The notes beneath the pieces were generated by a model, which did not search any database, had not been told where the DNA came from, and saw only the letters and a list, made by a program, of their open reading frames with translations. Below, in pieces: positions 347-21,556 of a DNA stretch of 64,000 nt. The DNA comes from Candidatus Beckwithbacteria bacterium GW2011_GWC1_49_16 (lineage in GTDB: Bacteria; Patescibacteriota; Microgenomatia; UBA1400; CG1-02-47-37): contig CP011210.1 of assembly GCA_001029675.1 (NCBI GenBank), forward strand, positions 453,663-517,662. The letters run 5' to 3'. The first letter of the stretch is position 1; the number at the start of each line of letters is the position of its first letter. The position numbers and the translations under genes were made by a program.

Positions 347-355
347 CTAAATAAT

Positions 356-1099
356 TTAATGATGCTCGCTTGAAACGGCGATGTTGATAAAGACTAAGGT
401 GAGCATAGCAAAAACCAGCGCCTGAATGAAGCCGACAAAGATTTCCAAGGCCACAAAAGGCAAGGGGCCGAACAAAGGCAGGAGAAAGGCGATGACGATG
501 AGCAAGACCTCGCCGGCAAAAATGTTGCCAAACAGCCTGAAAGTAAAAGAGATGAGACGGGAGAACTCGGCGATGATTTCTAAAAAGCCGACAAAAAAGT
601 TTATCGGATTGGTCAGGTTAAAAAACTTTTTAAAATAACTGATCCCCTGGTATTTGTAGCCGTAGATTTGTACCGAGGCCATGGCAAAAATGGCTATCGC
701 TAAAGTGGTGTGGACGTCGGCGGTGGCCGCCCGCAAAAGCGGCACAAAACGCTCCTGGCCGTTAACTACTTTGATCAGGCCGATGGTATCCAGGCCCGGG
801 AGTAACTCGGCCCAGCTGCCAAAAATGACAAATAGAAAAATAGTAGTAAACAGGGGGAAAAATTTCCCCGCGTGGTGCGGAGTGACGGATTGGACGAATT
901 CATAGAGGCTCTCGATGACTGTCGCCACAAAGAGAGCGAAATTACTCTTTTTGTTTTGTTTTAAATGCTGGTAAAACCTAATGGCCACTAAGCTTAAGCC
1001 GGCGGATACCAGAAGGCTCACCAACATCGAGTTGGTGAATTCAAAGTGTCCTAAATTAAAAATCGGCTCTGCCGATATCGAGATGTGTAGTTCAGCCAC
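356..1099 (-). CDS. atpB: F0F1 ATP synthase subunit a
   Basis: 247 aa polytopic membrane protein. Its C-terminal region has the conserved Arg/Glu-containing helices typical of subunit a (RLFGNIFAGEVLL...). It lies immediately upstream of atpE. Confidence 0.88.
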   Translation of the reverse strand: MAELHISISAEPIFNLGHFEFTNSMLVSLLVSAGLSLVAIRFYQHLKQNKKSNFALFVATVIESLYEFVQSVTPHHAGKFFPLFTTIFLFVIFGSWAELLPGLDTIGLIKVVNGQERFVPLLRAATADVHTTLAIAIFAMASVQIYGYKYQGISYFKKFFNLTNPINFFVGFLEIIAEFSRLISFTFRLFGNIFAGEVLLIVIAFLLPLFGPLPFVALEIFVGFIQALVFAMLTLVFINIAVSSEHH

Positions 1100-1162
1100 T
1101 TTAAATTTTTTTTGCTTTATTGGCCGTCTTTAGGATAACAACAGGCGGCAAAAGTGTCAAGG

Positions 1163-2011
1163 TTATAACAGTTTATCCAGCGGCAGGCCCAAGAGCGAGT
1201 CAAGTTGGCTTTTTAAGCTGGCGGCGGTTTCCCGGGAGTCGGGCCAAGGGGAAAAGCGGTAGTGGTCGAGGATCGCCAGTAACAGCTTAGCTTGCTCTGG
1301 CGGCAAAGGAAAAGTGTGCTGGTATTGATCTTTCAGGTTTGCCTCTGCCGAAAAGGCTAAGCTACCTTTGCCACCTTTGGCCTCTTGCAACTCCTTGATC
1401 AGTTTTATCTTGGTGGCTTTGTCAAGTTTTTCGTCGCGGAGTCTCATTAGTTCCGAAAGGTGCAAGAAAAGAATCCGGGCAACATGGCGCATGATGACGT
1501 CGTGCACCAGCGGTGAGGGTTCGCCGCGAAAACCTAAGTTGGTGGAGCGGGAAAAAACCATCTTGTCGATGCCGGTCAGTATCAAATCGACCTCGGGGTG
1601 GATGGCGTTACTAAACAGGGTGGAGAGTAACGCGTCGGCAATAGTCATGCGGGTTTTGTAAGACTCGACGTAGTTTTCGTTGATGTGGCTGTCGGTGGCC
1701 CAAAAGACGAGTTTTTTGACCAGGCGGCGGCGTTCGAGCCTTCCCGATTTGGTATCCGGATTGGCTTTTAAGAATTTATCTACTCTGGTTTCCACCGCTT
1801 TTGAGTGGATGACGGTGACGCTCTTTTTTCTTTCCCGGGCGAGTTTGACGCGGAACTTTAAGAATTTTCGGGCGTCGGCCTCGCCGAACAGGCCGGCCAT
1901 AAAGTCAAAGCGGGGATTCCAATCGTCTTTAAAAGCCAGTCTTAGGGCTAGGTCAAATCTTAACCAGGCGTAAACCGCCAGCATCAAAAAATACTTCACT
2001 CCCCTTTTCAT
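1163..2011 (-). CDS. hypothetical protein with an N-terminal hydrophobic segment
   Basis: 282-aa ORF with core-like GC content. It is directly upstream of atpB but is too long and too hydrophilic to be AtpI. No recognisable motif. Confidence 0.45.
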   Translation of the reverse strand: MKRGVKYFLMLAVYAWLRFDLALRLAFKDDWNPRFDFMAGLFGEADARKFLKFRVKLARERKKSVTVIHSKAVETRVDKFLKANPDTKSGRLERRRLVKKLVFWATDSHINENYVESYKTRMTIADALLSTLFSNAIHPEVDLILTGIDKMVFSRSTNLGFRGEPSPLVHDVIMRHVARILFLHLSELMRLRDEKLDKATKIKLIKELQEAKGGKGSLAFSAEANLKDQYQHTFPLPPEQAKLLLAILDHYRFSPWPDSRETAASLKSQLDSLLGLPLDKLL

Positions 2012-2038
2012 CGTTTTAGTTTACCACGAGCGGTTATT

Positions 2039-2311
2039 TTACCGATTCAGATACATAATTTCCTTAAAAACTCTTCTCAGTTGAATTTTCAACTCGGCCC
2101 TACCTTTACCGCCTTTTAAGTAGACCTCTCGTCCTTTTGCGTCAGCTCTGTTTTTGTAGGCTTCGTAGTAAATTAACTCTAACGGTAAACGATGTTTGGT
2201 TGCTTTAACGTAGCCGTTATTGTGTTTTTTAAGCCTCGCCTTTAAGTCGGGAGTATAGCCGGTGTAAAGTTTTCTATCTTTCTTTGAGAATAAAATATAG
2301 ACGTAGTGCAT
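2039..2311 (-). CDS. GIY-YIG nuclease family protein
   Basis: 90 aa. MHYVYILFSKKDRKLYTGYTPDLKARLKKHN matches the GIY-x10-YIG motif and the conserved Arg of the UPF0213-type small GIY-YIG proteins. It is the first AT-rich gene of the island. Confidence 0.8.
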   Translation of the reverse strand: MHYVYILFSKKDRKLYTGYTPDLKARLKKHNNGYVKATKHRLPLELIYYEAYKNRADAKGREVYLKGGKGRAELKIQLRRVFKEIMYLNR

Positions 2312-2340
2312 CGCGGTTTTCGTTAATCTGGCTTCGTTTT

Positions 2341-2395
2341 GATAGAGGTGAGTCCGCTTAGCGGACTATCACCTCGCTGAGCGAGGTGAGCCATA
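2341..2395. repeat. palindromic stem-loop cluster with mutually exclusive pairings
   Basis: GGTGAG-[AGTCCGC TTAG GCGGACT]-ATCACC-[TCGC TGAG GCGA]-GGTGAG. The central TCACC can pair with either flanking GGTGA. It lies in the divergent intergenic region between the GIY-YIG gene and the 2574 gene. Confidence 0.3.
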
Positions 2396-2455
2396 CGGGT
2401 CTGGAACCCTTTAGTCCCATAACCAGTAACTTTCGTAGTGTATCATATCAAGGCT

Positions 2456-2498
2456 AAATGAGACAAATGAGACACTATAAAAAGGGGTGTCTCAAATG
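2456..2498. promoter_or_regulatory. operator-like array: two direct copies and one inverted copy of (A/T)TTGAGACA
   Basis: The sequence reads aaatGAGACAaatGAGACActataaaaaggggTGTCTCaaatg and lies about 75 nt upstream of the 2574 start codon. A TATAAA element sits between the half-sites. Confidence 0.4.
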
Positions 2499-2573
2499 CT
2501 AGTGATGTAGTTTGATATAGACAGCCTTGATATTGGAACTCACATCCTGTAAGTAATATACTTGAACTAATAT

Positions 2574-3218
2574 ATGGCAAAAAAGACAAAACTAGTGAGC
2601 ATGCGAAAACCGATCTATTTAGTGCTATTTATAGTAATTCTCGCTCTCGGTGCTCTAATCTGGTACAAAAACTGGCAAAGCAAGTTTGAGGCTCCGAAAC
2701 AAGGTACTCAATTAATTGGGTTTACGATTAAGAAAGACACTTCCTTAATGGCGGTAGTTGGCGATCTTCACTATTACGGATTTATTAAGGATGAGGATGC
2801 CTTTAAATACGCTTTAGAGCACACAAAGGACAATACTCCAGGCAAGGCGAATGCTCTTACCATTGGTAATAACACTATCGACCGAGAAGCTAGATATAAA
2901 ATCTCTCAGAGTATGACTGCTTGGCAAATAGCAGACGTACTGCTTAACCAAGGTGAACTTAGTACATGCGACCATGGCTGTCCTGATAGTAATTTTGATC
3001 CAGAACTTCTTCCTGGTGGGGATTTAGCTCCTACTCTGAAAGAAAAGTATTCTGGGGTCAAAACTTACGAAGATTGCACTAAGGCAATTGGTCATGACGG
3101 AGGTCAACTCTCTTCAGAGCAATATGCCCAAAGAACAGGAATCAGAAGATGTGTTGCCCCTGATGGTCGAGAATTTACTCAAGGAAAAGAGGGTTGGTCG
3201 GACGTTCCTACTCCTTAG
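2574..3218 (+). CDS. hypothetical membrane-anchored or secreted protein
   Basis: 214 aa with an N-terminal TM/signal anchor (IYLVLFIVILALGALIWY) and a Cys-containing extracytoplasmic domain. No recognisable family. Confidence 0.5.
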   Translation: MAKKTKLVSMRKPIYLVLFIVILALGALIWYKNWQSKFEAPKQGTQLIGFTIKKDTSLMAVVGDLHYYGFIKDEDAFKYALEHTKDNTPGKANALTIGNNTIDREARYKISQSMTAWQIADVLLNQGELSTCDHGCPDSNFDPELLPGGDLAPTLKEKYSGVKTYEDCTKAIGHDGGQLSSEQYAQRTGIRRCVAPDGREFTQGKEGWSDVPTP

Positions 3219-4012
3219 CTAGTTATTTTTTCTTTATTTACCAGCGCCACGCTTTTGTTTAGCTCGTCCTTCAAAACGCTGAGCTCTGTTAACAACCCCT
3301 GTTTTCCAAAATATTTGGCTGCCACCTCCATTATTCTGCGTAACATATCAAATGCTCCAATCAAGTTGTTTTCCTGACCCTTAGTTTGTGGACCAGCAGA
3401 AAAGGTGGTGACATCATCAATTTTTGCAGACACTAATTGATTCAATACAATTGGCTGTGAATGAGCGTGCTGACTGGCTAAATTGTAGAAAACATCGTAC
3501 TCCCAACTACACCCAGTCTTCTTACAGAGTTCCTTAAAACTATAGCCTGACCATTTATACTTATCTGGCCTCTTATACCTCTTGTAAAACTGGATCTTTG
3601 CTTTGAGTCTTGCTTGGTAAATATCCAACGGAAACTCTTTCTTAAGCCTTCTTTTATTTTTTGCGTAGTCGAGCATGAAAAATTGTTGTACTTGGATATG
3701 CTCAATATATCGCCTAGCTCGAGTGTCTCTTTTTGTTTCATTAAGAATGTAGGTTAAATTTACCAAATCCTCAAACATTGAACGGACGATACTGTCCGCC
3801 TCCATACCATATCCAGACTTACACAAAATAACAGTAGCAGAATGACTGCGAATAGCTTTAGCAATTAAAGCTAGAAGAATATCAGTTTTGCGTGTTTTTG
3901 ATGGTGCCGTAAAACTGTTGAAGTGTTTTCCAGCCGCCGTTAATAAACGATCATTAAGTTCAAATAAACTCAATGAATCTTCAATGACACTTTTTGTCTG
4001 GTCTCTATTCAT
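3215..4012 (-). CDS. hypothetical protein, last gene of the LexA-CBASS operon (possibly HEPN-like)
   Basis: 265 aa. Its start overlaps the upstream gene's stop by 4 nt. It contains an R-x4-H (RRYIEH) and HAH residues. A JAMM-like spacing was checked and does not fit. Confidence 0.5.
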   Translation of the reverse strand: MNRDQTKSVIEDSLSLFELNDRLLTAAGKHFNSFTAPSKTRKTDILLALIAKAIRSHSATVILCKSGYGMEADSIVRSMFEDLVNLTYILNETKRDTRARRYIEHIQVQQFFMLDYAKNKRRLKKEFPLDIYQARLKAKIQFYKRYKRPDKYKWSGYSFKELCKKTGCSWEYDVFYNLASQHAHSQPIVLNQLVSAKIDDVTTFSAGPQTKGQENNLIGAFDMLRRIMEVAAKYFGKQGLLTELSVLKDELNKSVALVNKEKITS

Positions 4013-5679
4013 AGGTTAATTTTATTTCCCTTGCTATCGGCAATACTCATCTGTATTTTAGACTTTTGCTTCGGATATTTCTTCAAAAACTCTTGGTTTT
4101 CACTGACTAAAGATACGGTGTAATAAACAGTTCCATCTTTCCTTTTCAAATCTCTGCCGTGGAGTAAGCCCTCTCTCCTAAGTTTTTTAATCGAAGATGG
4201 ATGGACTCCGTGATTAGATGTAATCTGCAATCTTTCAAACCAGTTACTTTTATCGTCATGGCGATGCTTGAGGGGTGGAATAACGCCTTCTTTGATATTG
4301 TTCCAGCAATCTCTGCACCATAAACCGTTTAATGTCCACCAGATATCCTTTCCGTAGTAATACTCTCCACAAATTCCACAAGTATATGGACCTTTACCGT
4401 CGTCAAGGTAGAATCCTTCTGGCTCTTTCTCAAGTCTTCTTTTTCGTGTTGCTTCGATTCCATCAAATTCACCAGACATTCTTGCGAGTTGAACCAGGTT
4501 ATGACTCATATACTTAGCTCGTTTTTCTGAGTCACTGTTTGATTTTGGAGTTTTAACTTCTTTTTTGGCTCCAACCAATTCAAGTAAATCTTCTTCTTGC
4601 TCATATGCTTTCAGAGTGCCAGACAGATATCCAAGGCGATAGCGGATTCCATCACTCATAAGTCTCCAGTTGGTGTCTTCTAAAGTATCTTTCAGGAGTT
4701 TCTTGAGGGTTGCTTCGCTTATATTAGGATTTCTTGTTGAGTTAGCATCTAAAACATTAAAAGGAATCGTAACAAACCTGCCCATATCAGGTTTATCCAG
4801 CGTGAACTTAACGTATTTCTCCTTTTCCAATTTTTCAGTAAGCAATTTCTCGATTTCAAGAACGGTTAATCTTTTTAGATTGACTGCTGTTTGGTAGGCT
4901 TTGTCATCATATTTCTGTTTTTCTTCTTCATACACTTCATGACCTACTTCCATTGCTTCGAGTGTTTCGACGTGTTCTATGCCATCTTTTTCGTTTAAAC
5001 AAAACTCTCCTCGATACTTTTCAAGAAGTTTTTTGCCTTCTTCTTCCTTTTTCTTTTGCTCTTCCTCCCATTTCTTATGCTCCTCATCATGTTTAGCAAG
5101 ATCCTCAATTTCAGTTTTTGTATAACCACAGGCTTTGCATTTATGTTTCCAAGTAATGACTTTGCCTTTTCGAGTAGCTTTTATATCCATTTCTTCTTTG
5201 CACTTTGGGCAAAGGTCAGGCTTTGATAAGCGGATCTCATTATCGTCATATACCCACTGTTGTTTCTCGCATTTACTGCATTTAAAAAGAAACATCATGC
5301 GCATGATCGGGTTATCGTATGAGTAATCAAGGTGTTTTGAAGAATTGAAAGACATTGAACCGCCACAGAGGGGGCAAACAATTCCTTCTGGGATTGGAGT
5401 GTGATCTTGCTTATCCTGTTTTAGTTTGTCTTCTTCCATCCACTTCTGGATAGTTTCTTGTTTCTTTTCATACCTTTTGCCTTTTATAGTAAAAAGGGTA
5501 CGATGAAGCATAAGGTTTGCGTCATGCGATTTGACTTCTTGGGAAATATCCTTAAGCTCTTCGCTAGTAAGACTAGTTTTATAAATATCCTGAAACATTT
5601 TTACCGTATCAAGACACTCTTCAATGGTATGAAGGTCGTAGCGGTCAACATAATTTTGTTCATCATTTAGGTATTGCAT
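4009..5679 (-). CDS. multi-zinc-ribbon protein with a coiled-coil/Lys-Glu-rich linker, function unknown
   Basis: 556 aa with three CxxC...CxxC clusters (CPLCGG...CSKC; CPKC...CKAC; CGICGE...CRDC). The gene is translationally coupled on both sides, overlapping its neighbours by 17 nt and 4 nt. Confidence 0.5.
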   Translation of the reverse strand: MQYLNDEQNYVDRYDLHTIEECLDTVKMFQDIYKTSLTSEELKDISQEVKSHDANLMLHRTLFTIKGKRYEKKQETIQKWMEEDKLKQDKQDHTPIPEGIVCPLCGGSMSFNSSKHLDYSYDNPIMRMMFLFKCSKCEKQQWVYDDNEIRLSKPDLCPKCKEEMDIKATRKGKVITWKHKCKACGYTKTEIEDLAKHDEEHKKWEEEQKKKEEEGKKLLEKYRGEFCLNEKDGIEHVETLEAMEVGHEVYEEEKQKYDDKAYQTAVNLKRLTVLEIEKLLTEKLEKEKYVKFTLDKPDMGRFVTIPFNVLDANSTRNPNISEATLKKLLKDTLEDTNWRLMSDGIRYRLGYLSGTLKAYEQEEDLLELVGAKKEVKTPKSNSDSEKRAKYMSHNLVQLARMSGEFDGIEATRKRRLEKEPEGFYLDDGKGPYTCGICGEYYYGKDIWWTLNGLWCRDCWNNIKEGVIPPLKHRHDDKSNWFERLQITSNHGVHPSSIKKLRREGLLHGRDLKRKDGTVYYTVSLVSENQEFLKKYPKQKSKIQMSIADSKGNKINL

Positions 5680-6496
5680 TCTTTTTGTTTAATCCTTTTA
5701 AACTGAATACTGGCTGTTTAAAATGAGATCCACCGAACATGCTGTTCCATTCATCTTTGTCATTTATGTAGAAACTAGAAATGTCTTTACTGCTAACAGG
5801 TTTTTTATAATGCAACAGGATTATTGCTCGCATATTATTCAGTAGTGAGCAGACAAAGAGACACTTCCCGAAAATTCTGCCAATCTTAAAATTCAACGTA
5901 TGCTGTAAGACTATTGGAACTCCATCTCTGGTTTCCTTAGAAAAATAAGTAATCGTACTATCGGAGTCGTTCAGCTTAAAATGTTGTCCATTCCCAACGG
6001 AGATAGAAAGAGTTGTCTGGCTATGATTGGCTTTAACCCTATAACCATGTTTATAGGCATTGAGCAGATCGTAGTCGCCTAAATAATCCTTAGCGACTTC
6101 CTTAATTAAATTTGTATAAAGATTATATTTCTCATTTGTTCCACTATTATCTTTGAGAACAGAAAAGATTAATTTAAAAAACCAGGATGAAAGTTCCGTC
6201 GTCTTAGCGAAATTCTCACTAATGAAGTTGCGAAGATTAAAAGAATCGATAAATAAGGCTGAAGGGAATCTGTCAACCGTGACCGACAAAGCATGAGAGT
6301 TAATAAATAAAATCTCTGTCGCCTGTAAATAAAGCGTATATAAATCTAAGACAACTCTGTTTTGTTTTTTCTTATCCTTCAATCTTTCAAACTTGTTATA
6401 TAGCTGGATTGTCTTTTTAGTCAAACTATCGAAATCAGCATTTTCGTAGTGTGAAAGTTTAAAATCATCCAATTCTTTTTCTAAATCCGGAGTCAT
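5663..6496 (-). CDS. hypothetical protein co-transcribed with the CBASS effector
   Basis: 277 aa. It overlaps the effector gene by 4 nt (ATGA coupling). The region is AT-rich. No recognised motif. Confidence 0.5.
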   Translation of the reverse strand: MTPDLEKELDDFKLSHYENADFDSLTKKTIQLYNKFERLKDKKKQNRVVLDLYTLYLQATEILFINSHALSVTVDRFPSALFIDSFNLRNFISENFAKTTELSSWFFKLIFSVLKDNSGTNEKYNLYTNLIKEVAKDYLGDYDLLNAYKHGYRVKANHSQTTLSISVGNGQHFKLNDSDSTITYFSKETRDGVPIVLQHTLNFKIGRIFGKCLFVCSLLNNMRAIILLHYKKPVSSKDISSFYINDKDEWNSMFGGSHFKQPVFSLKGLNKKNAIPK

Positions 6497-7119
6497 AGCG
6501 TTTTATATTCCAGTTGTTCAGCATCCTCGAAATTTTCAGCAATCATGCAGGAATACCTGTCCAAGATAACAGTCCCAGCACCTTTTCTATCTGTAAAGTA
6601 ACTACCGAGCAATTTCTTGACTGGATTCCCTACAATATCAAATACGCTTGCTCCATCATGCGGTCTGTTATTATCTCTCTTACCATAAGGTGCTTCACTC
6701 TTATACAGATAAACAAGCTTTTTTCTATCTGGTTCTTCTTCAATCTTGGCGGTGACAGATTTAGAAGCCGACGGTTTCTTAAAGAATGAGCGGACTGATA
6801 CAGAAGTAAAAGTCTGATTAATAGCAACATAAATATCAGTCTCGCCGCTCATACCTTTCTCGTCACTCTCAAATTTTAGTTTTCCTTTCCATGTTCCATA
6901 AAGAATTGGCACTCCTAAAAATTGAGCTAGATATTTAAAGATCCACTTTCTCCAAATCCATTTATCATATGTAGTCCAGATAATAACCACCAAACTAGTT
7001 GCTCCCGACAACCAACGGAACAAGTTATCGTCAATAGACTGTCTCGTTACGAACGATAAAACAAAGATAAGTACTGAATATAAGAGAATGGCAGTTTTGA
7101 TTATTCGTTGCTGATTCAT
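6493..7119 (-). CDS. 2-TM membrane effector, Cap15-like candidate CBASS effector
   Basis: 208 aa. Two N-terminal hydrophobic helices (IIKTAILLYSVLIFVLSFV; SLVVIIWTTY) are followed by a soluble domain of about 130 aa. Its start lies 1 nt after the cyclase stop. Confidence 0.55.
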   Translation of the reverse strand: MNQQRIIKTAILLYSVLIFVLSFVTRQSIDDNLFRWLSGATSLVVIIWTTYDKWIWRKWIFKYLAQFLGVPILYGTWKGKLKFESDEKGMSGETDIYVAINQTFTSVSVRSFFKKPSASKSVTAKIEEEPDRKKLVYLYKSEAPYGKRDNNRPHDGASVFDIVGNPVKKLLGSYFTDRKGAGTVILDRYSCMIAENFEDAEQLEYKTL

Positions 7120-7120
7120 A

Positions 7121-8023
7121 TTATTTATTTAATAAGTTATAGGCACTCTTTATAAATTGTTTAGCATCATCTTTGGTCCAGTTTTGTTGTCCGTGGAATA
7201 AATATTTACATCCATTTACCTCACGCCACCTACAATCTTCAGAAAGAGTGTACTCGTCTTTTAGTAAATATGTCCACACCTCCTCACATCCTCTCAAAAC
7301 AATATCACGCCAAATCTCATTATTTGTGTAAATAGGATTGCTGACGTTATATGCCAAACTTTCAATCATGAATGATGGAAAGGGCGAGGTGTTGTTATTC
7401 TCAGAAAGGTGACCGTTAACATTTTTTAGAATACGTGCCACATTTTTAAATCGCTTCGAGGTCGAAGTATTTTTCTCAATTCCATTTTCAAGATGTTGAT
7501 CAGGGTAATTGAAATGTCTAATGCCATCAGGTCTGTTTAAAATTAACTGTATACCTTGGTTGTAATTTGTAGATCCAGTCGAATAATAATACCGATATGT
7601 GGTACATGGAATTATGTCAGCATCCAGTATCTTATCTGACCCTCTAATTTTGAAAACCTTATTACCTGATGAATCGACCAAGTTCTTCCCGAACTCAGTT
7701 TCTAGTGCTTTCTGTAAGCGAAGTTTAAAATCAATTTCTGAAATGCCTGTATAGCCGAAAAGACCAGTATTTGAAAATCCAACGCCTTCAGCATAGTTCA
7801 GGTTGATCATATCTTGTAGCTCAACAGCAATATCAATGTCTGAGTCATGTCTAACATTAGTATTATTTGGATAGGATCCTTTTGCAAAAACCCTAATACC
7901 CAAGTCACTCAAATGAGTATCAACAGCTGATTTAACAGTATCTTTTGTCTTTTCTGCTCTTTCCTCCTCGTTGTTAAACCAAGGTTTGATCCAGCCAGAT
8001 AGTTGATCATCGCTAATATTCAT
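7121..8023 (-). CDS. cGAS/DncV-like nucleotidyltransferase (CD-NTase, SMODS-type CBASS cyclase)
   Basis: 300 aa. It has the Pol-beta superfamily signature FAKGSYPNNTNVRHDSDIDIAV (GS...DxD) and a downstream third acidic residue (ILDADIIP). Its size and motif spacing are typical of CD-NTases. Confidence 0.7.
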   Translation of the reverse strand: MNISDDQLSGWIKPWFNNEEERAEKTKDTVKSAVDTHLSDLGIRVFAKGSYPNNTNVRHDSDIDIAVELQDMINLNYAEGVGFSNTGLFGYTGISEIDFKLRLQKALETEFGKNLVDSSGNKVFKIRGSDKILDADIIPCTTYRYYYSTGSTNYNQGIQLILNRPDGIRHFNYPDQHLENGIEKNTSTSKRFKNVARILKNVNGHLSENNNTSPFPSFMIESLAYNVSNPIYTNNEIWRDIVLRGCEEVWTYLLKDEYTLSEDCRWREVNGCKYLFHGQQNWTKDDAKQFIKSAYNLLNK

Positions 8024-8043
8024 AGATAGTTATTTTTTATTCA

Positions 8044-8253
8044 TCACTTTGCCTTACTCCTGTTATATGGATGCCTGTTGTGCGGCATAAGTGAAACATT
8101 TAAATCTTGAGCCTTAGCTTGTATCGCCCCAGGAGTTCTACTCATCTTTAATCCAATAACTCTCGTAGGGGTGTTACCTCTCGCGAGTTTTCGTAGTTGG
8201 GATTCCTGAGTCGGAGACCATTGTTTTCCTTGATTTGCTGGTTTCTTTGTCAT
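8044..8253 (-). CDS. small HTH DNA-binding protein resembling the GcrA N-terminal domain
   Basis: 69 aa. WSPTQESQLRKLARGNTPTRVIGLKMSRTPGAIQAKAQDLNVSL follows the W-x3-E...L-x2-L...G...I...L...R...A...AK...L pattern of GcrA-type or phage HTH proteins. Its start is 2 nt from the lexA stop and its stop is 20 nt upstream of the cyclase start. Confidence 0.45.
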   Translation of the reverse strand: MTKKPANQGKQWSPTQESQLRKLARGNTPTRVIGLKMSRTPGAIQAKAQDLNVSLMPHNRHPYNRSKAK

Positions 8254-8255
8254 AA

Positions 8256-8879
8256 TTAATCACCGCCTTTCTTAATAACATCCTCGACAACGCCTTGAAT
8301 AGAGAAGTCTTCAAATAATAATATTGGTTTATTTTTTGGGTTAGTAGATTCTGGTTGAAGACGTACGTAGCCATCTTCAGGAATTATCTTCTTAATTGTT
8401 GCCTCATCACCAATAAGTGCGACTACACGACTACCGGGGTCAGCTGTTTGCTGTTTTTTAATTAGGACAAAATCTCCATCATCAATTGTTTTTCCGGAAA
8501 CTCTGGCGTTATTCATACTGTCGCCTATTGCCCGTAGGAAAAAATAATTGTCCGGAGTTCCACTGATCTTCGAAGCATCAAATTGAATGTAGGCCTCAAC
8601 ATTTTCGGTAGCTAAGAATGGAACTCCACACGCTACATTGCCTACAAGGGGAATTTGTACTTTGTCAGATGAGTCCGGTAAAGCTAATCCTCGAGTATTT
8701 TCCAGATACCCCTTTTCTTTCAGTGCATCAGTGTGTCGCTGAACGGAGCTTATACTAGCTAAACCCAAGGTCACACGAAGTTCTTCAAGTGTGGGAGTTG
8801 TACCATTTTTATTTGCCTGATCCTTAATAGAAGACAGGACTATCTTTTGCTTTGAGGTTAAAGTCTTTCTCATACGCAC
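8256..8879 (-). CDS. lexA: LexA-like S24 autopeptidase repressor
   Basis: 207 aa. The N-terminus is a LexA-type winged helix (TPTLEELRVTLGLASISSVQRHTDALKEKGYLE). It has a VACG cleavage-site-like segment, the Ser nucleophile GDSM and a downstream KK. Confidence 0.85.
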   Translation of the reverse strand: MRMRKTLTSKQKIVLSSIKDQANKNGTTPTLEELRVTLGLASISSVQRHTDALKEKGYLENTRGLALPDSSDKVQIPLVGNVACGVPFLATENVEAYIQFDASKISGTPDNYFFLRAIGDSMNNARVSGKTIDDGDFVLIKKQQTADPGSRVVALIGDEATIKKIIPEDGYVRLQPESTNPKNKPILLFEDFSIQGVVEDVIKKGGD

Positions 8880-9084
8880 TATTCTACTCTAACTAGCGTA
8901 ATTATGCAAGGGGATTAGTTATTATAAAAAGCCTGTCAAGGGGGTAATTTCATCAAACAGTTTATAAATTGCTGTGTTGATTTAGCCCAATATATCGGTC
9001 TATTTATCATGTAACCCAGGGTTTCACCCACCCCTCCGTGTCACCCGGGCTATATCAAAACGGGGTGATATTGTTATCTTAATT
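8880..9084. promoter_or_regulatory. divergent promoter/operator region between the lexA operon and the ParB-MTase/terminase operon
   Basis: Contains ACAG-N11-CTGT (8957-8975) and CTGT-N20-ACAG, neither of which is a canonical SOS box. It also contains two direct TCACCC copies plus an inverted GGGTGA (9024-9068) just upstream of the 9085 start. Confidence 0.4.
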
Positions 9085-10407
9085 ATGAAAAACATACCTA
9101 TCCAAACGATCGAAGTTCCAATAATGGACCTAGTCTCACCAGACTACAATCCTCGTAAGCATGACGATCTGGCAAAGGAACAATTAAAAGAAAGTATCAG
9201 ACGCTTTGGGATCGTTGACCCAATTGTGGCAAACTCTGCACCAACTCGTAAAAATATAATCATCGGTGGAAATTTTAGATGGGAAACCATAAAGGAGTTG
9301 GGATATAAAACTGTTCCAGTCGTTTATGTAGATATTTCAGATCTGGAAAAGGAAAAAGAGTTGAACATTCGTCTCAATAAGAATACAGGTGAATTTGATT
9401 GGGATTTACTTGCTAAGTTTGATGAGTCATTCCTTGCTGATATTGGTTTTTCCAGTGGTGAACTCGATGGTATTTTTGATATTGACGTCCCAGAAGAATT
9501 CGACCTTGAAAAAGAACTTAAAAAGTTAAATATCCAGAAGATCAATGTTCAAAAAGGTGACATCTATTCTCTTGATGACTCAAAACTAATGTGTGGGGAT
9601 TCTACTATTGAAGCTGATATCTTAAAACTCATGGATGGTAAAAAAGCAGATATGTGTCTGACTGATGAACCATATTTGCTCGATTACGTTGGTGCAAAAC
9701 GTCACGGAAAACCAACAACTGGCTTTGGTGCCAAACGTAACAGAAGGTATCTTGAAACCGATGTTTTGCCGCCTAACTTTATATCCCTTTGGATGTCAAA
9801 TATCGCAAAGGTAGCAAAACCAGATTTCAGCATCATCTCGTACGAAAATTGGAAGAACACCCGAGCCATGTGGGACGAGATCGAGAAGTATTGGAAGGTG
9901 CGCAACATGCTGATATGGAGATTACCAAACAGACACCAGGGGTTTTCAGCTAAATATAAATTTTTCTCAAAATACGATATAGCTATGGTTGGAACAAGTG
10001 AGGGAAACCAAATAAATACAGAGGTGGAAGAAGAACTCCTGCAAAACGAATACGAAACCGCCTTGTATGCAACTTCAGGAAAGCCTCATTGGGAAGGCTA
10101 TGAACATGGAAAGAAGAATCAGCCAACCGATTTTATAGAGTTTAATGCTTCGGATGAAAAACACTCTGGTCAGGGAGTTGTGTTTGGCTGTAAGCCTACA
10201 GAGATTCTTATCCCCTATATCAAGATGCTTACAAAACGTGGCGATTTAATTGTCGAGCCATTTGGGGGAAGTGGAAGCACTCTAATTGCGGCCACCAAAA
10301 TGAAACGACGATGTTACATCATGGAAAAGTCTCCTGTATATACAGAGGTAATTATAAAACGCTGGGAAAATTTAACGGGACAAAAAGCCAAAAAAATCTA
10401 TGGATAA
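9085..10407 (+). CDS. ParB-like nuclease domain fused to a DNA methyltransferase (beta-class N6A/N4C)
   Basis: 440 aa. The N-terminus has a ParB/Srx fold (DYNPRKHD...IVDPIVAN...IIGGNFRWE). The C-terminus has a degenerate DPPY-type motif (TDEPYL) followed by an FGGSGST AdoMet-binding motif, in the permuted beta order. Phage and plasmid ParB-MTase fusions have this architecture. Confidence 0.75.
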   Translation: MKNIPIQTIEVPIMDLVSPDYNPRKHDDLAKEQLKESIRRFGIVDPIVANSAPTRKNIIIGGNFRWETIKELGYKTVPVVYVDISDLEKEKELNIRLNKNTGEFDWDLLAKFDESFLADIGFSSGELDGIFDIDVPEEFDLEKELKKLNIQKINVQKGDIYSLDDSKLMCGDSTIEADILKLMDGKKADMCLTDEPYLLDYVGAKRHGKPTTGFGAKRNRRYLETDVLPPNFISLWMSNIAKVAKPDFSIISYENWKNTRAMWDEIEKYWKVRNMLIWRLPNRHQGFSAKYKFFSKYDIAMVGTSEGNQINTEVEEELLQNEYETALYATSGKPHWEGYEHGKKNQPTDFIEFNASDEKHSGQGVVFGCKPTEILIPYIKMLTKRGDLIVEPFGGSGSTLIAATKMKRRCYIMEKSPVYTEVIIKRWENLTGQKAKKIYG

Positions 10408-10819
10408 CACTATCGAAAAAAGGCAATCAAAAAATAAAGAACAGCTGTTAGAGATACTAAAGAAAACTCCAATAGTTCAAATTGCCTGTGAAAAGGCTGG
10501 AGTAAGTCGAGCCACCTATTATCGATGGCGTAAAGATAACTCTGGATTTTCTCAGGCAAGTGATCAGGCATTATTAGATGGAAGCTTGCTGATAAATGAT
10601 ATGGCCGAAAGTCAAATGATAAGCGCTATCAAAGACAAGAATATGACTGCCATAATCTTTTGGCTTAAGACTCATCATGATGCCTATCGCAATAGAGTTG
10701 AAGTAACCACAACCAATGGCAACCAAGAAATTAACCTTACAGATGAACAAAAGGAACTGTTAAATAAAGCAATAGAGATGGCGGCATTAATTCCGCCCAA
10801 AGAAAACAGCAATGAATGA
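10400..10819 (+). CDS. terS: phage terminase small subunit (HTH type)
   Basis: 139 aa. It has an N-terminal HTH (IACEKAGVSRATYYRWRKDN) and directly precedes, and overlaps, the terminase large subunit. Confidence 0.65.
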   Translation: MDNTIEKRQSKNKEQLLEILKKTPIVQIACEKAGVSRATYYRWRKDNSGFSQASDQALLDGSLLINDMAESQMISAIKDKNMTAIIFWLKTHHDAYRNRVEVTTTNGNQEINLTDEQKELLNKAIEMAALIPPKENSNE

Positions 10820-12356
10820 CCAAGAACAAATAATCAAACAAATTCAGGAAAATCCTGACTTTCGGAAAGTATTAACGAAGGAGAATTTCTATTGGTTTTT
10901 TGTTACCTACTTTCCCCATTATATAACTTGCCCAACCGCTGATTTTCAAAAGGAAATCTTCAATCTCATTCAGAATGAGGAATTACAAAAAATCACAATC
11001 ACAGCCTTTCGCGGGTCGGCAAAATCTACTATTGCAACTTTGGCACTACCCATTTGGGCAATGGTCGGTAAACCCACCAAAAAATATACTCTACTAGTGA
11101 GCTTAACTCAGGGGCTTGCCAAGCAAATTCTTACGAACATAAAACAGGAGCTTTCATCAAACGAACTCCTAATGCGGGATTTTGGACCATTTTCAGAAGT
11201 GGCTGAAGAATGGCGATCTAACTCTCTTGTAATACCACGTTACAATTCCAGAATTTCAGCCATATCGCAAAGTGAAAGAATTAGAGGTCTCAGGCATAGG
11301 CAGTACCGACCAGACCTTATCATTATTGATGATGTTGAGGATCTAGAATCGGTTAAGACAAGAGAAAGCAGAGACAATCTTTGGAATTGGTTTTCGGGTG
11401 AAATAAAGCCTATTGGAGATAGTGGTACCAGAATTATTACCGTAGGCAATTTACTACATTTGGACTCGCTAATGATGCGGATTAAGCAAAACGTTCAAGC
11501 AGGCGCAATGGACGGTATTTATAAAGAATTTCCTTTGTTAGATAGTTATGGAAATATTGCCTGGCCTGGAAAATATCCGACTATGGAGGATATTGAAGCC
11601 AAAAGAAAAGATGTTGCCGACGAGGCAGCTTGGTATCGAGAATTTTTACTAAAAATTATTGCGGACGAAGACAGAATTGTTAAAGGAGCTTGGATTAAAT
11701 ACTACGACACCCTACCGGACTTTGATCGCTATCCGGCAAGATTAATTGCCATAGGAGTCGACTTGGCTATTTCTCTTTTGGCGTCAGCAAATTTAACAGC
11801 CTTAGTACCAGCATACATAGTTGGTTACGGAGACAATCTCCAAGTTTATATTTTGCCTTACATTTTAAACAAACGATTGGATTTTCCTCAAACTATTCAG
11901 GCAATTAAAATTCTTACTGAAAAACTAAAAGTCGGTTATAGACCGCACCCTAGGGTATATATAGAAAGCGTGGGGTATCAGAGTGCGGCTGCCCAACAAC
12001 TAATAGTAGAGCATGTTCTGGCCGAGGAAGTTAGAATTCCACAGTTAGACAAAAGATCAAGACTATCGATAATTTCTCCACTTATTGAGCAAGGCAAAGT
12101 ATTTTTTCCCAGATCAGGAGCTGAAGTGTTAATTGATCAATTACTGAACTTTGGAGTGGAAAAATACGATGATCTAGTTGATGCTTTCACCTTACTTATG
12201 TCAAAAATAATTGAAACAGACCACCCAACGAACAGAAGTACTCATTCAGATTTGCCACCAGAACCAGATCCACACCCTGGTTTGACATGGTCACTTGAAC
12301 ATATGAATGACTTAGGATTTGATCTTGAAACCATCAAACTAAATATGGTTTTCTAA
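10812..12356 (+). CDS. terL: phage terminase large subunit
   Basis: 514 aa with a Walker A (FRGSAKST), a Walker B (DLIIIDDVED) and a C-terminal RNaseH-like nuclease region. No portal or capsid genes follow. Confidence 0.85.
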   Translation: MNDQEQIIKQIQENPDFRKVLTKENFYWFFVTYFPHYITCPTADFQKEIFNLIQNEELQKITITAFRGSAKSTIATLALPIWAMVGKPTKKYTLLVSLTQGLAKQILTNIKQELSSNELLMRDFGPFSEVAEEWRSNSLVIPRYNSRISAISQSERIRGLRHRQYRPDLIIIDDVEDLESVKTRESRDNLWNWFSGEIKPIGDSGTRIITVGNLLHLDSLMMRIKQNVQAGAMDGIYKEFPLLDSYGNIAWPGKYPTMEDIEAKRKDVADEAAWYREFLLKIIADEDRIVKGAWIKYYDTLPDFDRYPARLIAIGVDLAISLLASANLTALVPAYIVGYGDNLQVYILPYILNKRLDFPQTIQAIKILTEKLKVGYRPHPRVYIESVGYQSAAAQQLIVEHVLAEEVRIPQLDKRSRLSIISPLIEQGKVFFPRSGAEVLIDQLLNFGVEKYDDLVDAFTLLMSKIIETDHPTNRSTHSDLPPEPDPHPGLTWSLEHMNDLGFDLETIKLNMVF

Positions 12357-13506: not shown

Positions 13507-16017
13507 ATGCAAAAAGAAGCAAAAGCACGGATCAAAATTAACAATCTTCTTCAGGAGTCCGGCTGGAGATTTTTTGATGATGAGCATGGAACGGCGAATA
13601 TAGTTCTAGAAAACAATGTCAAATTGACAAAGCAGGTAGTTGACGAATTAGGCAATGATTTTGATAAAACCAAGAACGGTTTCATAGATTTTCTTCTACT
13701 TGATGAAAAGTGTTTCCCTTATGCAGTGCTGGAAGCTAAATCTGAGGACAAAGATCCTCTAGATGGGAAAGAGCAGGCTAGAAGATACGCCCAGTCACAA
13801 AACGTTCGTTTTATTGTTCTTTCCAATGGTAATGTTCATTACTTCTGGGATTTAGAGCGAGGCAATCCATCTTTTATTTCCTCGTTTCCCACACAAGAAT
13901 CTCTCAAACATTTTGTTTCGTACAAGCCAGACTCTAAGAAATTGACAGAAGAAAAAGTTTCAGAAGATTACATAGCTTTAACTCAAAATCCTACATACCA
14001 AAAAGATCCTCGCTGGCAAGATGAGGTACTTAAACACGATCAAATTCAAGAACAGGATTTGAAGTTTCTACGCCCATATCAACTTAGGGCCATAACTGCT
14101 TTGCAAGAATCTGCCCAAAATGGCAATGACCGTTATCTTTTTGAAATGGCAACTGGTACCGGTAAGACTCTAACCTGTGCCGCCGTTATCAAGCTTTTCC
14201 TGAAAACTGGCAATGCCAAACGAATTCTCTTTTTAGTTGACCGTATTGAGTTGGAAGATCAGGCGGCCAAGAATTTCAAAAAATATTTGGCTAAAGATTT
14301 CACCAGCGTTATTTATAAAGAAAATCGTGATGATTGGCGTAAAGCTGAAATTGTGGTTTCGACTGTTCAAAGCCTTTCAACTAATAATAAATATCAGAAG
14401 TTATTTAATCCTACCGATTTTGATTTAATTATCTCTGACGAGGCACACCGTTCAATTGGTGGTAATAGTAGAGCTGTCTTTGAGTATTTCGTGGGTTACA
14501 AGCTAGGACTTACGGCTACGCCTAAAAACTACCTGAAAGGTATTGATCCAAATCAGCTTAATGCTCGTGATCCTCGGGCTTGGGAAAAACGTCAACTTCT
14601 AGATACCTATAAGACTTTTGGTTGTGAAACAGGAGAACCAACCTTCCGCTATAGTCTTCTTGACGGTGTCAAAGAAGGTTTTCTGGTCAACCCAATAGTT
14701 GCTGATGCCAGAACGGAGATTACTACACAACTCCTTTCTGATGAAGGGTATTCTCTTTTAGTTGATACAGAAGAAGGCAAAGAGGAACAAGTTTTTTATC
14801 AATCAGATTTTGAGCGAAAGTTTTTCTCTGACAAAACTAATCTAATTTTTTGTGAGACTTTCTTAAAGAATGCCTTGATGGATCAAATCTCTGGAGAGGT
14901 TGGCAAAAGCATTATTTACTGTGTGAGTCAAAAACATGCCAGTAAAATTACACAGCTTCTAAATCAGCTCGCTGATAGTTACTGGCCAGGAAAATATAAT
15001 TCCGATTTTGCTGTGCAGGTAACTTCTAATATTCCTGATGCTCAGCAATTCACAATAGGCTTTGCTAATAACAACCTTAATGGTCACACGCCTTGGCTGG
15101 AAGGTTATAAGTCCAGCAAAACTAGAGTTTGCGTGACGGTGGGTATGATGACTACTGGCTATGATTGCCAAGATATATTAAATCTTTGTTTAATGCGGCC
15201 AATTTTTTCCCCAACAGATTTCATTCAGATCAAAGGACGTGGTACACGAAAATACGCCTTTACCTTTGAAAATCGTGAGAATGGTGAAATTGAGAAAGTC
15301 AGGGTTGATAAAGAAAAATTCAAATTATTTGATTTCTTTGCTAACTGTGAGTATTTCGAAGAGAAATATAACTATGATGAAATTCTAAAAATTCCTAAGA
15401 CAATTTCGGGCACAGGACCAGGCGGAGAACCTACGGTTAATATTGATGTGACCATTGGTATCCCAGATCCTCTCAAAACATTCCAAGAAAAAGCGATTGG
15501 TTTACAAGGAATGAAAGTAGATCGCAAGATTTTTGAAAAGTTTGAGGAAACGGTTAAGGCAGATTCTTTCATCAAAGAAAAATACGAAGCTGGCGATATG
15601 CAGGCAGTTGAGGATTATGTGAAGACTGAGGTTTTTGATAAACCTGAAGATTATTTCAATTTAGACAAGCTTCGTAAATCAGTCAAGGTTGACCGTCGGC
15701 TTTCCCTGGGAGAAATAATGGATAAGATTTTTGGGCGGTTAGATAAATTTAAAGATAAAGATGAACTTTTAGAGGAAGAGTTTGAAAAGTTTATCTCAAT
15801 TTACAAGCCAGATAGTAAGTACTACTACCCAATAAAGAATTTCCTCAAAGCTTATATTACTGATAACGAGATTAGAGAAATTGTAGAAACAAAGGAATAC
15901 GGTCGGTTTGCAACAAACCCAAAAGTATCACTAGTAGACTTTAAGGCCTTGAACGGGTACCGTGACGTCGTGCCAGAGTATGTAAAGGACTACGTATCAG
16001 TTAATACGTATATGTAA
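13507..16017 (+). CDS. hsdR: type I restriction enzyme R subunit (short form)
   Basis: 836 aa. The N-terminus is an HsdR_N-type PD-(D/E)xK domain (IDFLLLDEKCFPYAVLEAKS). SF2 helicase motifs follow: GTGKT (Walker A), DLIISDEAHRS (DEAH), and TTGYDCQ motif VI. Confidence 0.8.
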   Translation: MQKEAKARIKINNLLQESGWRFFDDEHGTANIVLENNVKLTKQVVDELGNDFDKTKNGFIDFLLLDEKCFPYAVLEAKSEDKDPLDGKEQARRYAQSQNVRFIVLSNGNVHYFWDLERGNPSFISSFPTQESLKHFVSYKPDSKKLTEEKVSEDYIALTQNPTYQKDPRWQDEVLKHDQIQEQDLKFLRPYQLRAITALQESAQNGNDRYLFEMATGTGKTLTCAAVIKLFLKTGNAKRILFLVDRIELEDQAAKNFKKYLAKDFTSVIYKENRDDWRKAEIVVSTVQSLSTNNKYQKLFNPTDFDLIISDEAHRSIGGNSRAVFEYFVGYKLGLTATPKNYLKGIDPNQLNARDPRAWEKRQLLDTYKTFGCETGEPTFRYSLLDGVKEGFLVNPIVADARTEITTQLLSDEGYSLLVDTEEGKEEQVFYQSDFERKFFSDKTNLIFCETFLKNALMDQISGEVGKSIIYCVSQKHASKITQLLNQLADSYWPGKYNSDFAVQVTSNIPDAQQFTIGFANNNLNGHTPWLEGYKSSKTRVCVTVGMMTTGYDCQDILNLCLMRPIFSPTDFIQIKGRGTRKYAFTFENRENGEIEKVRVDKEKFKLFDFFANCEYFEEKYNYDEILKIPKTISGTGPGGEPTVNIDVTIGIPDPLKTFQEKAIGLQGMKVDRKIFEKFEETVKADSFIKEKYEAGDMQAVEDYVKTEVFDKPEDYFNLDKLRKSVKVDRRLSLGEIMDKIFGRLDKFKDKDELLEEEFEKFISIYKPDSKYYYPIKNFLKAYITDNEIREIVETKEYGRFATNPKVSLVDFKALNGYRDVVPEYVKDYVSVNTYM

Positions 16018-16022
16018 ATATT

Positions 16023-19000: not shown

Positions 19001-19184
19001 CCATTTTGATAAAAAGGAATCACTTTTCAAAGCAAATTATGATGATTTGCATAAAGCAGTAGAAACTGTACGATCAATCGCAAGTAAATATTACTTACTG
19101 CTTAAACAGGGTGGCAATGATCTTATTCCGTCTGATCAAACCGATTGGCAGGAGATACTAACAATTCCCTGGATCAAAAAATAA
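16023..19184 (+). CDS. hsdMS: type I R-M HsdM-HsdS fusion with a C-terminal HEPN/Abi-like domain
   Basis: 1053 aa. The N-terminus is an N6-adenine MTase (DPACGTAGFL motif I; MANPPF motif IV). Two HsdS target-recognition domains follow (LGSLFEMINGRAFKKEEW...NQHIYKF; LCTLVRGSSPRP...FILLRQK) around a central conserved helix. The extra C-terminal domain of about 250 aa contains RNKRIAHFD (R-x5-H). Confidence 0.8.
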   Translation: MLTQETKRKIDSARDILVGKVPDPKAQVEQITTAMIYKFMDDMDKDAVELGGKARFFTNGFEKYAWSKLLDSRLGGHERLDLYAEAIVQMSSNPHIPQLFRDIFKDAFLPYRSPETLSLFLKEINSFTYDHSEDLGDAFEYLLSIMGSQGDAGQFRTPRHIIDFIVAVVDPKKDDSILDPACGTAGFLISAYKHILKQHDGRDDPKHKEKPLTPDDKKRLMNNLFGYDISPDMVKLSKVNMYLHGFAEPKIFEYDTLSSDEKWDETYDVIMANPPFMTPKGGIRPHKRFSVQANRAEVLFVDYIKEHLRPNGRAGIIVPEGIIFQSGNAYKQLRKMLVEDGLFAVVSLPNGIFNPYSGVKTSILFFDNVLAKRTNEILFVKIDSDGFDLGAQRRKIESNDLTAALIILKKYIEDPNTTLLIEVKNLATLVSKTRISEKGDYNLSSDEYKQTEVISNKRWPMKELGSLFEMINGRAFKKEEWKTNGTPIIRIANLNDNNAEFNYFEGNCDDKIIVKNGDLLFSWSGTRGTSFGPHIWNRGKGVLNQHIYKFQPLQGDIDIAFAYLVIKIIVPEIEAQAHGAGGLVHITKEKLKHFRIPVPPLPVQKQIVEQIEGYQKIIEGAKQVVKNWKPITDINPDWETALIQDLCTLVRGSSPRPKGDKRYYDGKIPRLMVSDVTRDGMYTTPQTDSLTEEGSKLSRPMKKGEVVMAVSGNPGLPTILTVDACIHDGFVGFRKLSSKIIPEFLYFILLRQKDENNSRSVGAVFKNLTTDQIKKFKIPVPPINIQLELVEQITQERQVVGANEEIIREYEAKIQNEIKDVNDGKAHSPLSKNQNELIKQLKDDFESIESEVIRMMGNKEIFKEIIEISKRNSQINKGNSLWDFLKESYVALMVSAVCRQIDTDERSSSLVNLLRTILFNPTVIQSLNKDWYSEQYHRDNDIFPGFMEGIGKGDFEEHFGSKEYVDPAIVYMDLKKLEEDTKEIKKYRNKRIAHFDKKESLFKANYDDLHKAVETVRSIASKYYLLLKQGGNDLIPSDQTDWQEILTIPWIKK

Positions 19185-21280: not shown

Positions 21281-21455
21281 CCTCAACACCAAGACTGGTG
21301 TTCTTCTCGTGGCTTAAATGCAGGGGAAAAATAGAGGGAAATCTGTGTATTACAGGATCTAAAACGACATTTCGAACAATTCGATCAAAGATTAGCAAGC
21401 AACATCGGGCTTTTCAGCGCAGGCCAACGGGTCGCGCTGAACCTTACGATATATG

Positions 21456-21527: not shown

Positions 21528-21556
21528 CTTCGGCAAGCTCAGGGCTAAAGCCCTGG

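Follow-up and report, generated by a model that had tools for sequence, protein, structure and literature searches.

The question raised by two adjacent genes of Candidatus Beckwithbacteria bacterium GW2011_GWC1_49_16 is whether they constitute a working cyclic oligonucleotide-based antiphage signalling system (CBASS) and, if so, which nucleotide would carry its signal and what would set its expression. The genes lie in a stretch of 64,000 nucleotides (nt) of contig CP011210.1, the whole of which is referred to here as the window. They encode a cGAS/DncV-like nucleotidyltransferase (CD-NTase) of clade E, CdnE, and an effector of the Cap15 type, and the locus is very probably a functional abortive-infection CBASS of type I (the form with a two-transmembrane, 2TM, effector, 'type I-B').

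7121..8023, minus strand: cdnE, CD-NTase of clade E, 300 amino acids (aa), from the list of open reading frames (ORFs) and from profile and PDB matches
6493..7119, minus strand: cap15, effector, 208 aa, from Pfam, PADLOC, an AlphaFold (AF2) model and Foldseek

A preliminary description of this DNA had proposed such a cyclase–effector pair, and both ORFs are present at exactly the coordinates that it gave (6493-8023). Its reading of the pair stands with three refinements, namely that the genes are on the minus strand, that the catalytic aspartate pair is D62/D64 and that the two genes are embedded in a longer chain of co-directional genes. The ORF coordinates place cdnE and cap15 1 nt apart in the same direction. 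The order on the minus strand is lexA, a 69-aa ORF, cdnE, cap15, genes for proteins of 277 and 556 aa and a DUF5677 gene; the gaps between the first four are 2, 20 and 1 nt and the genes that follow overlap by 4, 17 and 4 base pairs (bp).

The pair is an ordinary CBASS and adds no new mechanism; type I systems of the CdnE–Cap15 kind have already been characterised both structurally and genetically. It is unusual only in its setting, a mobile island in a member of the candidate phyla radiation (CPR), and in its apparent co-transcription with a LexA-type repressor gene. Its modest interest is that the ultrasmall and mostly uncultivated Patescibacteria, the immune repertoire of which has been little studied, are here seen to carry a CBASS that is intact and for which cyclic di-UMP is the predicted signal. 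A literature search for CBASS in Patescibacteria/CPR returned general defensome surveys and no specific description.

Identification of the cyclase and the effector

The 300-aa protein is matched over residues 4-299 by the PADLOC Cyclase profile PDLC00794 (E = 3.3e-100). Its best phmmer matches in the PDB are EfCdnE (7x4c, 2.2e-42), LpCdnE (7x4f, 3.1e-42) and ClCdnE (7x4a, 4.8e-37), and the earlier clade E structures 6e0m and 6e0k are also among the top matches. The alignments with solved CdnE proteins span residues 1-299 (E from 2e-42 to 3e-26), with approximately 37% identity to EfCdnE, and the precomputed annotation assigns the Pfam family CD_NTase_C (PF26305) to the cyclase. The CBASS_cyclase_a and CBASS_cyclase_b models of NCBIfam fell short of their cut-offs (200), with 39.2 and 21.2 bits over residues 104-235 and 161-224 only; these models evidently represent other clades and the miss has no bearing on membership of the CD-NTases. 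The best NCBIfam match, which is full length, is the DS2_2_antiphage nucleotidyltransferase (136.6 bits versus a cut-off of 350).

In the HMMER alignment, G49-S50, D62-x-D64 and D136 align with S53, D65/D67 and D139 of LpCdnE, which are metal-binding residues in that enzyme (PMC10442399). G49, S50, D62, D64 and D136 are invariant in 19 homologues, with identities down to 32%. The GS...DxD...D nucleotidyltransferase triad reported in the preliminary description is therefore real and in register with the solved CdnE structures. The string that it named as catalytic, DSDIDI, holds in part: the second and third aspartates, D62 and D64, are catalytic, while D60 is not conserved and is N, D or E in the homologues.

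The product of cap15 scores above the gathering cut-off of the Pfam family Cap15_CD_rec (PF18153; 7.5e-15, 55.8 bits versus 31.2) and matches the PADLOC 2TM effector (E = 6.6e-38). Its transmembrane helices were judged from hydropathy together with the AF2 model, which was built with 21 homologues and has a predicted local distance difference test score (pLDDT) of 80.9 and a predicted template modelling score (pTM) of 0.72. A hydrophobic segment is present at residues 6-24 (Kyte-Doolittle peak 2.41), followed by a second, weaker one with its core at W36-Y51. The predicted architecture comprises transmembrane helix 1 at about residues 7-25, transmembrane helix 2 at about 36-51, a linker helix at 59-67 and an eight-stranded β-barrel at 75-190. 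In the model the two helices extend over residues 3-25 and 29-53, where 19 of 23 and 19 of 25 residues, respectively, belong to a broad hydrophobic, small or hydroxyl class (AILMFVWGCSTY), the second helix being the less hydrophobic.

The three best Foldseek hits of the effector are all to the receptor domain of YaCap15 from Yersinia aleksiciae (7N34/7N35), with TM-scores of 0.84-0.85 and a root mean square deviation of 2.1 Å. Two N-terminal helices ahead of a soluble domain, now placed at about 135 residues, had been proposed from the sequence, as had a Cap15-type effector with a cyclic-nucleotide-binding fold. The helices are seen in both the hydropathy profile and the model; the Pfam match over threshold, the PADLOC match far above chance and the structural match to YaCap15 agree with the remainder.

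Pairing of the genes and CBASS type

The pairing of the two genes is strict. A genome survey of 80 loci, from Patescibacteria, Actinomycetota, Gammaproteobacteria, Cyanobacteria, Bacteroidota and others, found a Cap15-like ORF adjoining the cyclase in every case, directly downstream in 78, and the subfamily is widespread (238 relatives in all among species-representative genomes). The same pairing is seen in four of four viral contigs and in every metagenomic relative examined, and cap15 is immediately downstream of cyclase homologues at 82, 73, 71, 63, 53 and 48% identity. At the loci L006/L007 and L093 (comparison loci are cited by their L numbers) the next gene converges on the pair, from which it follows that the pair stands alone there, in L006/L007 between unrelated genes.

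Searches with Pfam, PADLOC and NCBIfam revealed no Cap2 (E1/E2), Cap3 (JAB), HORMA, TRIP13 or type IV nucleotide-modifying genes among the neighbours at 1163-8879. As no ancillary CBASS gene was matched, the system is assigned to type I, the architecture given in the preliminary description.

Three other accounts of the pair were weighed. The Pol-beta GS...DxD motif is common to CD-NTases and minimal nucleotidyltransferases (MNT), and the 300-aa protein could on that ground be an MntA-type antitoxin of a toxin–antitoxin pair and not a signalling cyclase; it matches MntA weakly (E = 0.042), and likewise Pfam NTP_transf_2, at 17.8 bits where the gathering cut-off is 21. The MntA match, however, reaches 13.7 bits where 60 are required and is confined to 24 residues (49-72), whereas the matches to CD-NTase and CdnE run the full length and are better by 40-100 orders of magnitude, and the partner gene encodes Cap15 and not a HEPN toxin. 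An MNT identity, against which the preliminary description had already set its CD-NTase assignment, was rejected on the profile and PDB matches and on the partner, and its probability is negligible. The neighbouring terminase genes (TerS/TerL), which occur without other structural phage genes and could point to degradation of the island, might suggest that the pair is a remnant in decay, which no longer functions and is a mere passenger there. Both ORFs nevertheless have their full length and retain every catalytic and ligand-lid residue, 129 blocks of the sequence collection contain an identical 300-aa protein, and orthologues of 48-97% identity keep the same length, which makes a remnant very improbable. 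A system of a novel type, in which the genes downstream of cap15 and/or the 69-aa gene would be new ancillary parts, is a somewhat less remote proposition, given the overlapping gene ends, the position of the 277-aa gene directly after cap15 with the same 4-bp overlap in the window, L004 and L092 (63-83% identity) and the recurrence of the 556-aa gene in L004. The downstream proteins are, however, absent from 80 of 80 other CdnE–Cap15 loci and from L006-L009 and L093, and members of the 277-aa family are encoded at three loci that have no CBASS: in L101 between hsdM and hsdS of a type I restriction–modification (R-M) operon, in L099 next to an SDH protease, and in L103 on their own. In L092 an unrelated basic ORF of 48 aa takes the place of the 69-aa ORF, and in L012 another unrelated ORF does so. 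The larger system is thus improbable, and an extended CBASS type was rejected because the downstream genes are absent from the other loci and the 277-aa family also has members outside CBASS loci. The two-gene type I system remains the preferred reading.

One viral contig, L096 (IMG/VR), carries two convergent CdnE–Cap15 pairs within 351-5553:

351-1226, plus strand: cyclase
1994-2632, plus strand: Cap15-like ORF
3935-4591, minus strand: Cap15-like ORF
4567-5553, minus strand: cyclase

Predicted nucleotide signal

The specificity lids of the cyclase carry N172 (lid 1), H177 (lid 2) and Q280-N-W282 (lid 3). These align with N173, N178 and Q274-x-W276 of LpCdnE, and lid 3 aligns also with R279-x-W281 of EfCdnE. 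N172, Q280 and W282 are invariant in the 19 homologues, and of the 80 genome loci 79 have QxW and 78 have N[YFW]P. In CdnE enzymes encoded beside Cap15, the asparagine of lid 1 reads the acceptor uracil, while the C-terminal (R/Q)xW of lid 3 was found experimentally to narrow the donor pocket to pyrimidines; EfCdnE in which either the Arg or the Trp of lid 3 is mutated makes cyclic UMP-AMP and cyclic UMP-GMP (cUA/cUG), and di-pyrimidine CdnE enzymes are active in vitro without ligand (PMC10442399). The β-barrel of Cap15 is in turn reported to sense uracil-containing cyclic dinucleotides (PMC10419184). Based on N172 and QxW, and on the sensing of uracil dinucleotides by Cap15, 3'3'-cyclic di-UMP is predicted to be the main signal, which appears likely although well short of assured.

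Several points weigh against this prediction or against the transfer of function on which it draws. The glutamine of the acceptor pocket that precedes the GS motif, Gln51 of ClCdnE, which hydrogen-bonds the acceptor uracil (PMC10442399), is replaced by lysine (Lys48) in the window protein, as in at least 90% of the aligned subfamily, so that base specificity could differ from that of the characterised enzymes. Ssc-CdnE03 of Staphylococcus schleiferi is also paired with Cap15 and makes 3'2'-cyclic GMP-AMP (3'2'-cGAMP); pairing with Cap15 alone therefore does not fix the ligand. The sequence match of the effector to the solved YaCap15 chain is weak (phmmer E = 0.0016; the barrels are 24% identical). 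Product, trigger and membrane killing are all attributed by homology, the last of these to YaCap15 and Ssc-Cap15.

A type I CBASS with a purine-containing signal, for example the cyclic UMP-AMP of RmCdnE or the cGAMP of Ssc-CdnE03, would accommodate both Lys48 and the staphylococcal precedent, and the products of clade E enzymes are varied. The asparagine of lid 1 and the QxW of lid 3 are, however, both present and invariant; it is mutation of (R/Q)xW that turns EfCdnE to purine use, and the closest solved relatives are three di-pyrimidine synthases. A purine-containing signal is therefore considered rather unlikely, and cyclic di-UMP is retained as the predicted product. The prediction is testable through the published (R/Q)xW rule, including the natural Gln-to-Lys variation in the acceptor pocket.

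In the mechanism proposed, phage infection would lead CdnE to cyclise two nucleoside triphosphates at a two-metal site formed by D62, D64 and D136, the likeliest substrate being two UTP molecules and the product 3'3'-cyclic di-UMP. The dinucleotide would bind the cytosolic β-barrel of Cap15 in the inner membrane, whereupon Cap15 would form higher-order oligomers through its two transmembrane helices and breach the membrane, and the cell would die before the release of phage progeny. The two genes would be transcribed from an autoregulated lexA promoter, at a level that would rise when the repressor cleaves itself after DNA damage or accumulation of single-stranded DNA.

Comparison with characterised CdnE–Cap15 systems

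The same type I architecture, a cyclase gene followed by cap15, is found with LpCdnE (CdnE02) of Legionella pneumophila, EfCdnE of Enterococcus faecalis and ClCdnE of Cecembia lonarensis (PMC10442399). The window enzyme shares with these the catalytic triad and the lid 1 asparagine; its lid 2 histidine is as in EfCdnE and ClCdnE, and its lid 3 has the Q form of LpCdnE. It differs in having Lys48 in place of Gln51 of ClCdnE, in its CPR host and in being encoded in an operon behind a lexA-type gene and not by a stand-alone pair.

YaCap15 is known to bind cyclic dinucleotides that contain uracil, and as their receptor it forms oligomers and disrupts the inner membrane (Duncan-Lowey et al. 2021, as summarised in PMC10419184). 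It has, like the window effector, two N-terminal transmembrane helices and an eight-stranded C-terminal β-barrel, and differs from it in the low barrel identity given above. Ssc-CdnE03 and its Cap15 likewise form a two-gene system of a clade E cyclase and Cap15 beside a type I R-M system, and this 'type I-B' operon has been proven experimentally to provide abortive-infection defence in staphylococci (PMC10686824). The cyclase is activated by RNA derived from phage terminase genes, and the operon shows no transcriptional regulation (PMC10686824). Unlike the staphylococcal enzyme, that of the window has a lid 3 of the pyrimidine type.

A lexA gene upstream of the pair

Immediately upstream of cdnE and on the same strand are the following features:

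8256..8873, minus strand: LexA-family S24 repressor gene, 205 aa, with ATG at 8873 and an alternative GTG start at 8879
8044..8253, minus strand: basic ORF of 69 aa, 2 nt past the lexA stop and 20 nt ahead of the cdnE start
8881..8909, minus strand: predicted lexA promoter, with -35 TTGCAT (8909-8904), a 17-nt spacer and -10 TAGAAT (8886-8881)

The repressor is matched by the NCBIfam model TIGR00498 lexA (134.8 bits versus a cut-off of 110.95) and by Pfam Peptidase_S24 and LexA_DNA_bind. It contains the LexA motifs VACG (V80-A-C82-G83), GDSM with S119 and IKK with K161; the predicted self-cleavage site is C82-G83, a UmuD-like Cys-Gly, and the Ser119/Lys161 dyad is kept. The guanine-plus-cytosine (GC) content of the gene, 0.40, is island-like. 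The 69-aa ORF is probably co-transcribed; its counterpart at this position in L004 is an orthologue with 83% identity, and the window ORF has a weak match to the PHROG family 'transcriptional regulator, D5-like' (2.1e-07).

An operator-like palindrome, TACGCTAGTTAGAGTA, lies at 8900-8885, within the spacer of the predicted promoter and overlapping its -10 element. It is the sole match with one mismatch in the window, and a search of the window for an SOS regulon found no further operator copies beyond the lexA site itself. The promoter and palindrome are kept in six independent loci, with a consensus of TACGC-TAGTAA-GCGTA that is perfect in L004 and L146. A scan of metagenomes with the promoter/operator motif gave 80 stored loci, of which 76 were chance matches and four real lexA promoters.

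With the lexA ATG (8873-8871) only 7 nt past the predicted -10 element, the mRNA would be leaderless or nearly so. Ahead of cdnE and cap15, too, nothing resembling a Shine-Dalgarno sequence is seen.

The order lexA, small ORF, cdnE, cap15 recurs with different flanks in L004/L005, L091/L092 and L146, and in L012 a distant S24 repressor precedes the CdnE–Cap15 pair. No terminator-like site was found between lexA and cap15 in a scan for such sites; the sigma-70 and terminator scans covered 2000-9200 and gave no more sites than shuffled sequence, such that they lend weak support only. In the LexA-linked loci 9-23 nt and no promoter-like site are found ahead of cdnE. By contrast, stand-alone relatives have non-coding DNA ahead of cdnE with extended -10 elements, e.g. 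TGGTATAAT. Judged from these arrangements, cdnE and cap15 most probably have no promoter of their own in the LexA-linked lineage and would be transcribed from the lexA promoter.

The gene position behind lexA is not always occupied by CBASS. In L137 (42-1776, minus strand) a lexA of 87% identity, under the same promoter and operator, is followed without a gap by a different defence cassette, which consists of:

DUF2188/PDC-S16 protein, 79 aa
PDC-M50A membrane protein, 133 aa
PDC-M50B/ThsB-like TIR protein, 148 aa

The slot thus holds CBASS in the window, L004, L092 and L146 and a TIR/PDC-M50 cassette in L137.

The position of lexA and its operator-bearing promoter suggest that expression of the pair is coupled to DNA damage. 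On comparative and positional grounds, co-transcription of the CBASS pair under LexA control is put at an even chance. Weighing against it are the nature of the evidence for LexA coupling, which consists of gene spacing, conservation between loci and a promoter scan with a simple consensus; the count of the palindrome, which is not significant by itself (31 of 100 shuffles give at least two matches at two mismatches); and the lack of lexA beside the closely related pairs of L006 and L093, which makes the link lineage-specific. The adjacency could instead have no regulatory meaning, with constitutive expression of the pair from a promoter that went unrecognised within lexA or the 69-aa ORF. Promoters of CPR bacteria are poorly known and only the sigma-70 consensus was scanned for; Ssc-CBASS shows no transcriptional response to infection (PMC10686824), and related pairs work without lexA. 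This account has to contend with gaps of only 2 and 20 nt and no terminator, with the same arrangement in four independent contexts, with the extended -10 elements that are present in stand-alone relatives and absent from LexA-linked loci, and with the other defence cassette that follows, gap-free, the closely similar lexA of L137. It is a serious possibility, a little less than evenly balanced.

Going beyond LexA control of this one pair, it is tentatively proposed that an island LexA of the CPR lineage, with the operator TACGC-N6-GCGTA, heads an operon in which abortive-infection cassettes are interchangeable and their expression is tied to RecA-dependent self-cleavage; the balance is somewhat against this broader proposal. 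The fusion of LexA to the pair on the same strand, and the fact that this lexA is followed by other cargo in a sibling genome, suggest SOS-type level-setting of abortive infection. If true, the repressor would add a fourth class to the CBASS regulators that are coupled to DNA damage, with a mechanism unlike those of CapW, CapH/CapP and CapK/CapS, and the slot behind its gene would be a defence hotspot that is defined by the gene for a regulator.

CapW, CapH/CapP and CapK/CapS are DNA-damage-responsive regulators of CBASS (PMC9122588, bioRxiv 10.1101/2022.04.27.489752, PMC13373217). They resemble the arrangement in the window in that a repressor gene lies beside CBASS and its inactivation by DNA damage would raise expression of the immune operon. 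They are, respectively, a WYL protein, a helix-turn-helix protein with a metallopeptidase and a kinase with a repressor, and are usually encoded divergently, whereas the window has a LexA/S24 repressor upstream, on the same strand and in the same predicted transcript. A literature search on CBASS with LexA found no description of a LexA-fused CBASS. In the cI-rexA-rexB operon of phage lambda, an S24-family repressor gene is co-transcribed with abortive-infection genes on a mobile element. RexAB are, however, unrelated to CBASS, and the element in the window is a serine-recombinase island with only TerS/TerL among phage genes.

Genes downstream of cap15

Three genes continue the co-directional chain past cap15:

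5663-6496, minus strand: 277-aa gene, 4-bp overlap with the cap15 stop
4009-5679, minus strand: 556-aa Zn-ribbon protein, with several CxxC motifs and a weak excisionase-like C-terminal segment
3215-4012, minus strand: DUF5677 protein (Pfam 8.8e-30), which ends the chain

They are probably co-transcribed with the CBASS pair, and are neighbouring island genes and not components of CBASS.

The 277-aa protein has no family match in Pfam, PADLOC or NCBIfam, only a marginal one in PHROG (E = 0.0086), and its family is a rare one: a set of 1.84 billion proteins has 86 representatives of it. The AlphaFold model of the 277-aa protein is very confident (pLDDT 89.5, pTM 0.87) and consists of a helical bundle followed by a β-sheet, for which no significant structural match was found in the PDB or in BFVD (viral models). 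The family has an invariant motif, L-N-A-Y-K-H-G-x-R, at residues 145-153. Homology to DUF5677 was rejected (hhalign probability 0.3%), and the gene is regarded as a candidate defence-island gene.

Where the 556-aa gene is present it always follows the 277-aa gene. Its orthologue in L004 (42% identity) has an extra C-terminal kinase-like domain (AAA_18/AAA_33). The DUF5677 gene is not conserved in L004 or L092.

The genomic island

The CBASS pair is carried as cargo by a defence island that is mobile, related to phages and approximately 21 kilobases (kb) long. The island extends from 2039 (a GIY-YIG gene) to 23413 (the end of an AAA gene). It is recognised as such by its low GC content, a serine recombinase beside tRNA genes, an R-M system and phage-type genes. 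GC content per gene is 0.32-0.43 within the island versus 0.47-0.57 in the flanks, which carry ATP synthase genes on one side and pyrG, dnaE, gatB, gatA and clpB on the other. Further features of the island are:

9085-12356, plus strand: ParB-N/N6-N4 DNA methyltransferase, TerS and TerL, divergent from lexA
13507-19184, plus strand: type I R-M system, including a methylase-specificity protein fused to a HEPN AbiU2 domain
19925-21280, plus strand: large serine recombinase, adjoining the tRNA genes
21455-21527, minus strand: tRNA-Glu
21554-21628, minus strand: tRNA-Lys

No portal, capsid or tail genes follow the ParB-methyltransferase/TerS/TerL trio, which is also found beside lexA in L004 and L146 and may be a satellite-like or degraded phage module. 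A search for attachment-site repeats found no convincing direct repeats flanking 2-23 kb. In the R-M region (13507-19184), R-M and abortive-infection modules are joined in one polypeptide.

The identical locus is present in assembly GCA_003534915.1 and in many metagenomes, and the closest named relatives are Patescibacteria/CPR. Two contigs bear other labels: L011, from an 'uncultured Pseudomonadales' bin, shares 260 nt upstream of cdnE with the CPR-like contig L093, and a 3-kb contig with the CdnE/Cap15/277-aa triplet is labelled 'Clostridia bacterium'. Both are probably mis-binned fragments of Patescibacteria.

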